A stretch of 5,484 nt of DNA, taken from the IMG/VR virus record IMGVR_UViG_2606217104_000010; one strand, given 5' to 3'. A program made the position numbers and the translations under genes. Shown in pieces: positions 4,183 to 4,392 of the stretch. Under the pieces are notes generated by a model. It was not told the origin of the DNA, ran no database searches, and saw only the letters and a list, made by a program, of their open reading frames with translations. The number at the start of each line of letters is the position of its first letter. The first letter of the stretch is position 1. This DNA comes from a virus (lineage: Duplodnaviria > Heunggongvirae > Uroviricota > Caudoviricetes).

Positions 4183-4211
4183 TTGACTTTTTTGTTTACT
4201 GTTTATTAAAA
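4183..4211 (+). promoter_or_regulatory. Promoter-like element: perfect -35 TTGACT (4183-4188) followed by an AT-rich stretch with a TATTAA/TTAAAA -10 candidate.
   Basis: Motif reading. The spacer to TATTAA (4204-4209) is 15 bp; to TTAAAA (4206-4211) it is 17 bp. It lies about 180 nt upstream of the intrinsic terminator at 4366-4392. Confidence 0.3.
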
Positions 4212-4365
4212 AATCAACCGCATGGTGAATCCTCCTTGGAGGGGCTAAATGATCGAGTTTTAAGGGCACGTAGCGAGTTCTGTTTGATCATTGCAGAACT
4301 TAGCGGGAGGCGCCATGCGTACATCACTAATGTTATTTCCTTCTATCATTTTCCTTGTGAGTTCT

Positions 4366-4392
4366 GGCTGCGCATGGCGCGGCCTTTTTTTT
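4366..4392 (+). terminator. Rho-independent (intrinsic) terminator: GC-rich hairpin GGCTGCGC-ATG-GCGCGGCC followed by an 8-T run.
   Basis: Direct reading: an 8-bp stem (one U-G wobble), a 3-nt loop, then TTTTTTTT at 4385-4392, on the + strand about 85 nt upstream of the nanS-p start. Confidence 0.75.

Follow-up and report, generated by a model that had tools for sequence, protein, structure and literature searches.

What lies between the last cargo gene and the sialate esterase gene nanS-p in a lambdoid prophage late region is the question raised by a 5,484-nucleotide (nt) stretch of caudoviral DNA (IMG/VR record IMGVR_UViG_2606217104_000010), which is referred to here, at its full length, as the window. 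An earlier note, made from the sequence alone, had singled out positions 4183-4392, where a perfect -35 hexamer with an AT-rich -10 candidate stands about 180 nt upstream of a textbook hairpin with a T8 tract, and where no convincing gene lies in between. It offered two explanations, a relic second late promoter and terminator resembling a PR'-tR' unit, or a small RNA. The present analysis very strongly favours the latter: positions 4220-4392 are, with high confidence, pasD1 (EcOnc13), a 173-nt Hfq-binding small RNA (sRNA) gene known from lambdoid prophages of pathogenic E. coli. The pasD1/EcOnc13 element has already been described and is not new.

The promoter-terminator unit and the sRNA PasD1

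The features of the locus, all on the plus strand, are as follows.

4183-4188, plus strand: -35 hexamer TTGACT of the pasD promoter, read from the sequence; TTG is kept at this position in 12 of 14 PasD/STnc100 copies.
4207-4212, plus strand: -10 hexamer TAAAAA, separated from the -35 by an 18-nt spacer; G4220, the 5' end published for PasD1, follows 8 nt downstream.
4220-4392, plus strand: pasD1 small RNA gene, alias EcOnc13, identical to PasD1 of strain E2348/69 at 173/173 positions.
4220-4318, plus strand: structured 5' domain common with STnc100, comprising P1 (4220-4227/4311-4318), P2 (4232-4236/4240-4244) and P3 (4275-4282/4294-4301).
4305-4317, plus strand: GGGAGG followed by AUG, resembling a ribosome-binding site and start codon; aligns to the STnc100 P4 5' arm and loop and the P1 3' strand.
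4326-4376, plus strand: equivalent of the EcOnc13 Hfq ultraviolet (UV) crosslinking peak (Sakai 901332-901382), mapped by exact sequence match.
4356-4361, plus strand: proposed seed UGUGAG, complementary to CUCACA in targets found by ligating and sequencing interacting RNAs (RIL-seq; PMC8550237 Fig. S5, motif table), and unchanged in the window.
4366-4392, plus strand: intrinsic terminator with stem 4366-4373/4377-4384, loop AUG and U8 tail 4385-4392.

The case that this unit is more than a chance arrangement comes from identity to an experimentally defined RNA and from conservation, not from motif statistics. The PasD RNAs were originally described by Pearl Mizrahi et al. (2021) in enteropathogenic E. 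coli (EPEC) E2348/69, involving discovery by RIL-seq and confirmation by Northern blotting (PMC8550237), and PasD1 and PasD2 were placed on the plus strand of NC_011601 at 1060260-1060432 and 741157-741328, respectively (PMC8550237, Table S6). Alignment and exact string search both match PasD1 to window positions 4220-4392 over all 173 nt, and an exact copy of the same 173 nt is present in prophage Sp3 of the enterohaemorrhagic E. coli (EHEC) O157:H7 strain Sakai (901226-901398). The published Northern probe CATGCGCAGCCAGAACTCACAAGG (PMC8550237) is the reverse complement of window positions 4353-4376. In EHEC Sakai, the EcOnc13 peak at 901332-901382, obtained by UV crosslinking and analysis of cDNA (CRAC), was accompanied by a Northern band of ~187 nt (Tree et al. 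2014, Table S2, PMC4104026). The name EcOnc13 occurs only in supplements and gave no main-text literature match.

The element is carried by 678 of 5426 complete E. coli genomes, with all copies at least 95% identical and all of them chromosomal. PasD2 departs from PasD1 at 4 positions, among which is a terminator-stem change that is compensated, and a PasD2-like allele is found in phages 434 and 2B8 within the same module (98.5-98.8% identity). The window has the seed, terminator and promoter of the known PasD element and the same slot, after a DUF3927 gene and downstream of the antiterminator gene Q. In E2348/69, the PasD1 allele is directly followed by a holin gene and the PasD2 allele by a SASA esterase gene, whereas in the window the PasD1 allele precedes the esterase gene and follows a lambda-type Q; because of this combination, the window is read as a recombinant context.

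By the published start, the transcript begins at G4220, in keeping with TTGACT, the 18-nt spacer and TAAAAA, and the inferred activity of this promoter is of the sigma-70 type, as judged from its sequence. TAAAAA or TAGAAA is kept at the -10 position across the aligned PasD and STnc100 copies. A consensus promoter scanner, whose rule demands T at the sixth -10 position, did not call the pasD promoter, and the basis of its assignment is thus conservation together with the published 5' end. The promoter is given as 41 nt 3' of the DUF3927/TciB gene (gene 4021-4179; RNA start G4220). At the other end of the unit, the terminator has an 8-bp stem with 7 GC pairs and a 3-nt loop (hairpin 4366-4384, about -14 to -15 kcal/mol), and was the sole terminator-like site called by the scanner on both strands of 2900-4700, as well as the best T-tract-anchored plus-strand hairpin within 2990-4480, from PR' to nanS-p. 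In the record of phage 434, a terminator is annotated at the homologous site. The resulting promoter-to-terminator transcript of 173 nt bears out most of the earlier note: the hexamer, the AT-rich -10 (best read as TAAAAA) and the hairpin with T8 (~-14 kcal/mol) are all present, the ~180-nt unit agrees with the published length, and the suggested small RNA, with ends at ~4212 and 4392, lies within 8 nt of the published ends at either side. The terminator is immediately followed, within the leader of nanS-p, by an inverted repeat at window positions 4393-4418, ATGACCTGCCACTGGCAGATGGTCAT; substitutions in phage JLK-2012 disrupt its outer pairs and do not compensate, and a conserved structure here is doubtful on this comparison.

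Transcription would start at G4220 from the gene's own sigma-70-type promoter and would end at the hairpin and U8 tract (4366-4392). The predicted RNA consists of a 99-nt structured 5' domain (P1-P3), apparently inherited from the STnc100 family, and a 3' tail in which a U-rich single strand is combined with the proposed UGUGAG seed and the terminator. It is through this tail that the RNA touches Hfq and becomes ligated to its mRNA partners in RIL-seq. The sizes, RNA-seq abundance and RIL-seq partners of PasD1 and PasD2 are given in PMC8550237 and its supplements, where PasD is abundant in uninduced EPEC and the PasD1 chimeric fragments come mainly from the 3' 50 nt (1060384-1060434). For identical sequences in EPEC and EHEC, published work has shown crosslinking to Hfq, chimeras with core and virulence mRNAs in RIL-seq and Northern signals, and has reported an Hfq-dependent stability (PMC8550237, PMC4104026), and by analogy the window would be expected to give rise to a discrete, Hfq-associated RNA. 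On Hfq, the UGUGAG seed may pair with CUCACA-containing mRNAs such as aceE, uspA, yhdW, tir, cesF, bfpB and perB.

Relation to the STnc100 family

The Rfam model STnc100 (RF02076) aligns over its full length to window positions 4190-4395 (37.7 bits, E=1.1e-5), and scores 37.7 bits with PasD1 and 41.4 bits with PasD2 of E2348/69. Weak Rfam matches to GcvB, SorX and asX2 over 4268-4430 were dismissed as driven mainly by the terminator. The two families share the P1 helix (GCAUGGUG/CACCAUGC), the P2 hairpin and a covarying P3 hairpin, together with the same promoter layout, an intrinsic terminator at the end and Hfq binding, and the RNA start GCAUGGUGAAUCC is almost invariant across the PasD/STnc100 alignment. 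They differ in the P2 loop, which is 3 nt shorter in PasD, and in the 3' tail, seed and terminator of PasD, which are unrelated in sequence to those of STnc100. BLAST found no direct link between the PasD and STnc100 families. A scan of genome contigs with the 14-base pattern CATGGTGAATCCNCC, which proved too short, returned chance matches only, in unrelated phyla.

The predicted fold of the RNA (-59.3 kcal/mol, z = -2.5) has P1 with 8/8 pairs, one of them G-U, enclosing P2, for which 5 pairs around a 3-nt loop are possible, and P3, with 8/8 pairs. Helix pairs were counted by script in 11 sequences; the MAFFT alignment of the 5' domain misplaced the P1 3' strand of PasD and was not used for the counts. 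Pair 7 of P3 is U-A in PasD, whereas five copies have A-U and another five have G-C (a double compensatory change), and P1 shows two double substitutions in one divergent copy. This covariation is supportive of the fold, without proving it. Taken on sequence and predicted structure, PasD is best described as a diverged branch of the STnc100 family that is missed by the Rfam threshold. Zhu, Shabalina and Storz (2026, bioRxiv 10.64898/2026.05.13.724894) likewise describe the PasD sRNAs as structural relatives of STnc100, with a location between Q and the gene for a sialate esterase.

The genomic position of the two families also corresponds. The earlier note had pointed to the interval between stxB and nanS-p in Shiga toxin (Stx) phages, and this is exactly where STnc100 sits in 933W and BP-4795. 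A BLAST search of the phage collection with the Rfam consensus gathered STnc100 relatives from 374 phage records, mostly those of Stx-converting phages. In 933W, 75 nt separate stx2B from the start of the STnc100 copy and ~200 nt separate the end of this copy from L0105, the nanS-p homologue, and BP-4795 and the other phages examined are arranged in the same way. STnc100 (EcOnc27/sRNA103) lies downstream of stx2B in Stx2 phages, with PasD as its positional equivalent, and the slot after cargo genes and before nanS-p or lysis genes is used in 933W, BP-4795, 1717, Evi and JLK-2012 as well. In Stx phages, the anti-sRNA AsxR or AgvB abuts the STnc100 3' end on the opposite strand in convergent orientation, whereas no such partner follows PasD in the window. 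This AsxR/AgvB arrangement was seen in 933W (L124) at 3708-3760 on the minus strand, and likewise in the phage records L126, L130 and L136.

Phages JLK-2012 (L135, 1008-1290) and Evi (L125, 2986-3172) combine an STnc100 5' domain, including P4, with a PasD-like tail; JLK-2012 also has a PasD-type terminator, and the UGUGAG seed is absent from both. As read from their sequences, these chimeras suggest modular exchange of 3' seed and terminator modules. A further phage, vB_EcoS-813R8 (L131), contains three STnc100-type copies in tandem between Q and the lysis region (1494-1687, 1723-1898 and 1963-2151), of which the middle one is strongly diverged (30 bits) and keeps P1 through compensatory changes.

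Prophage context and rival readings

The window is the late-regulatory region of a lambdoid prophage, with the following genes besides pasD1.

1034-1657: ninG.
1654-2319: metallophosphatase.
2316-2939: lambda-type antiterminator Q.
3177-3935: 252-amino-acid (aa) multi-pass membrane protein.
4021-4179: DUF3927/TciB protein.
From 4479: DUF1737/SASA esterase, nanS-p.

The order Q, 252-aa membrane protein, DUF3927, pasD and SASA esterase agrees with prophage PP2 of E2348/69 and with phage 434, and the wider lambdoid setting, within a few kb of Q and next to an esterase gene, has an order that agrees with E2348/69 PP2 and PP4. Homology to lambda (96% identity) spans 2300 to ~3014, through the -10 and the -35 (TTGACT, 2983-2988) of PR', the latter being the same hexamer as that at 4183-4188, and a weaker likeness covers the initial transcribed and pause region to ~3029. 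The lambda-type PR'/qut is thus kept at 2983-3030, with the pause-region hexamer AATAAT here in place of AACGAT in lambda. Beyond it the lambda 6S RNA and tR' are absent, and a 1.4-kb cargo unit (membrane protein, DUF3927 and pasD) replaces them. The 252-aa membrane protein gave no Pfam match; over the interval 3152-3935, one RefSeq record among those listed names an "STM1630 family protein". Just upstream of the membrane-protein gene, a promoter-like TTGACG at 3152 is accompanied by the extended -10-like TGTTATGAG. At the left end of the window, an IS3-family transposase orfA (HTH_Tnp_1; 2-304, minus strand) interrupts ninB, whose remainder at 363-698 retains only profile positions 35-131, and a truncated match to the Rfam ALIL frameshift pseudoknot lies at 1-23.

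Several points weigh against the identification with pasD1 and the functions proposed for it. The 5' end at G4220 is an estimate from RNA-seq coverage rather than a mapped primary 5' end, and the expression evidence stems from other hosts, EPEC and EHEC. The probe listed under EcOnc13 in the supplement of Tree et al. (TTTTCTAACACATCTATTATCAGACCGGCAACAAC) is absent from both the window and PasD, and matches instead a region just upstream of STnc100 in Stx1 phages (L126 2979, L129 1479). This mismatch may reflect a labelling or text-extraction problem, or a probe for a different copy, and because of it the ~187-nt size possibly does not come from a PasD-specific probe. As regards family membership, 37.7 bits is below the 47-bit gathering threshold of STnc100, the 11 sequences used for covariation are a small and mutually related sample, and the STnc100 P4 hairpin (CCGGG-aggca-CCCGG) is incomplete in PasD, which keeps GCGGGAGGCG without the 3' arm CCGGGaggcaCCCGG. 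As regards function, target regulation by PasD is only proposed, and MEME support for the seed is weak, with motif E-values for PasD1 and PasD2 of 2.4e03 and 6.5e0 as extracted (PMC8550237 Fig. S5). Gating of nanS-p in cis is plausible, as a deduction from the sequence.

The proposed status of the PasD targets, together with the position of the hairpin as the only strong terminator downstream of PR' and the cargo genes, leaves room for an alternative in which the cis function is the main one, the hairpin being the terminator of the membrane-protein/DUF3927 operon and the RNA a stable 3' by-product devoid of a regulatory role. This alternative is improbable. Promoter elements are kept beyond the DUF3927 stop codon, at the 41 nt given above, and the RNA has a discrete 5' end at G4220; it forms hundreds of Hfq-dependent chimeras with specific mRNAs, which contain a common motif complementary to 4356-4361; and its 99-nt 5' domain is conserved and covarying, whereas a terminator alone needs no such domain.

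That the region instead encodes a small protein is very improbable. The candidates are a 63-64-aa "putative membrane protein" (4236-4430) and a 36-aa lipoprotein-like peptide from AUG 4315 (4315-4425). The latter is preceded by GGGAGG (4305-4310), 4 nt before the AUG, and its sequence MRTSLMLFPSIIFLVSSGC resembles a lipoprotein signal sequence; the phage 434 record has a coding sequence (CDS) with a ribosome-binding site annotated here, and some of the STnc100 copies of EDL933 are reported to carry ribosome footprints, with a ribosomal coverage that reaches 3.2. However, ribosome coverage is low on most of these EDL933 copies, and GGGAGG and AUG fall, in the alignment, on conserved STnc100 helix elements, the P4 5' arm and loop and the P1 3' strand, respectively, and resemble a ribosome-binding site because they are conserved RNA elements. 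Pfam gave zero matches for either open reading frame (ORF). Both ORFs extend through the terminator, so that the terminated RNA would contain no stop codon. A 1-nt indel between PasD1 and PasD2 lies inside both, reducing the ORF from AUG 4315 to 14 aa and wholly changing the C-terminal half of the longer one, and on this frameshift the 36-aa and 64-aa ORFs were both rejected, in agreement with the earlier note, which had seen no convincing gene in the interval.

The other half of the earlier proposal, in which the unit is the decayed relic of a second late PR'-6S-tR' promoter and terminator that came in with nanS-p from a donor phage, is hardly tenable, since a BLAST comparison of 4150-4480 with lambda 43800-45300 gave a best E of 0.21, which is not significant (other Q-type PR' transcripts were not compared exhaustively), no segment of the promoter at 4183 matches lambda PR'/qut, whose real homologue is at 2983-3030, and the unit lies 1.24 kb from Q rather than adjacent to it. 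The lambda 6S RNA is 194 nt long, and the similar transcript length and the shared -35 hexamer are what commend this reading, along with the similarity of JLK-2012 to the window, which as detected by BLAST begins at the terminator (4362) and continues into nanS-p; from this last observation, the terminator can travel with the esterase gene. The -35 nevertheless varies within the family (TTGCCT, TTGTCT or TTGATT), and because the hexamer is not conserved, the match of TTGACT to PR' is taken to be coincidental. The PasD/STnc100 family follows cargo genes in phages with at least four different Q genes (207, 229, ~157 and ~144 aa), and in 933W a separate pR'/qut and terminators are annotated immediately behind Q, ~2 kb upstream of where STnc100 lies. 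The RNA is also abundant in uninduced EPEC and binds Hfq, as expected of a functional gene and not of a relic. The lambda PR'-6S-tR' unit and pasD are alike in being short transcripts that end at a strong late-operon terminator and that share a -35 hexamer; unlike lambda 6S, PasD is a regulator that binds Hfq and has a conserved fold of its own.

The terminator in cis and the meaning of the annotation

Besides ending the sRNA, the pasD terminator may act in cis, closing the cargo ("moron") unit after PR', blocking read-through into nanS-p and the lysis genes in the lysogen and being passed by Q-modified polymerase. The idea of the earlier note that it gates nanS-p is reinforced by its being the only strong terminator from PR' to nanS-p. 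A terminator following PR' is intact in phage 434 and E2348/69 PP2 (-12.5 kcal/mol, T8), and the homologous sequence is decayed in the window, at 3058-3080, and in E2348/69 PP4, which has a lambda-type Q (-2.2 kcal/mol; T5 in the window). The 3058-3080 sequence also marks the left edge of the common cargo module. Because the lambda 6S RNA and tR' are absent and the 434-type terminator has decayed from -12.5 to -2.2 kcal/mol, it is possible, if doubtful, that the tR' role has passed to the pasD terminator in prophages whose Q is of the lambda type, such as this one and E2348/69 PP4.

The value of identifying pasD1 here is one of annotation, not discovery: hundreds of complete E. coli genomes carry an abundant Hfq-binding sRNA that is left without annotation. 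In the records listed, the locus lacks an sRNA gene; phage 434 (L001, 2587-2775) has the 63-aa "putative membrane protein" CDS, and the 40 RefSeq E. coli genomes listed of the 678 have a "hypothetical protein" under the match, a CDS that lies on the opposite strand in E2348/69 and Sakai. The CDS annotated over pasD is probably spurious, and recognising pasD1 removes it and explains the strong terminator before nanS-p. It also ties the prophage to known networks, as PasD/STnc100 RNAs have a link to the regulation of virulence in EPEC and EHEC: the RIL-seq virulence partners include tir, cesF, bfpB and perB (PMC8550237), and variants overlapping the STnc100 copy downstream of stx2 were among the features predicting haemolytic uraemic syndrome in a machine-learning study (PMC12711010). 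A point of some remaining interest is the pasD terminator as a functional tR' in lambda-Q-type prophages. If this were true, constitutive PR' transcription in the lysogen would cross the membrane-protein and DUF3927 genes and halt only at 4392, PasD would partly be a 3' end product of the PR' transcript, like StxS in Stx1 phages, and Q would have the pasD hairpin as a barrier to overcome before nanS-p and lysis could be switched on.

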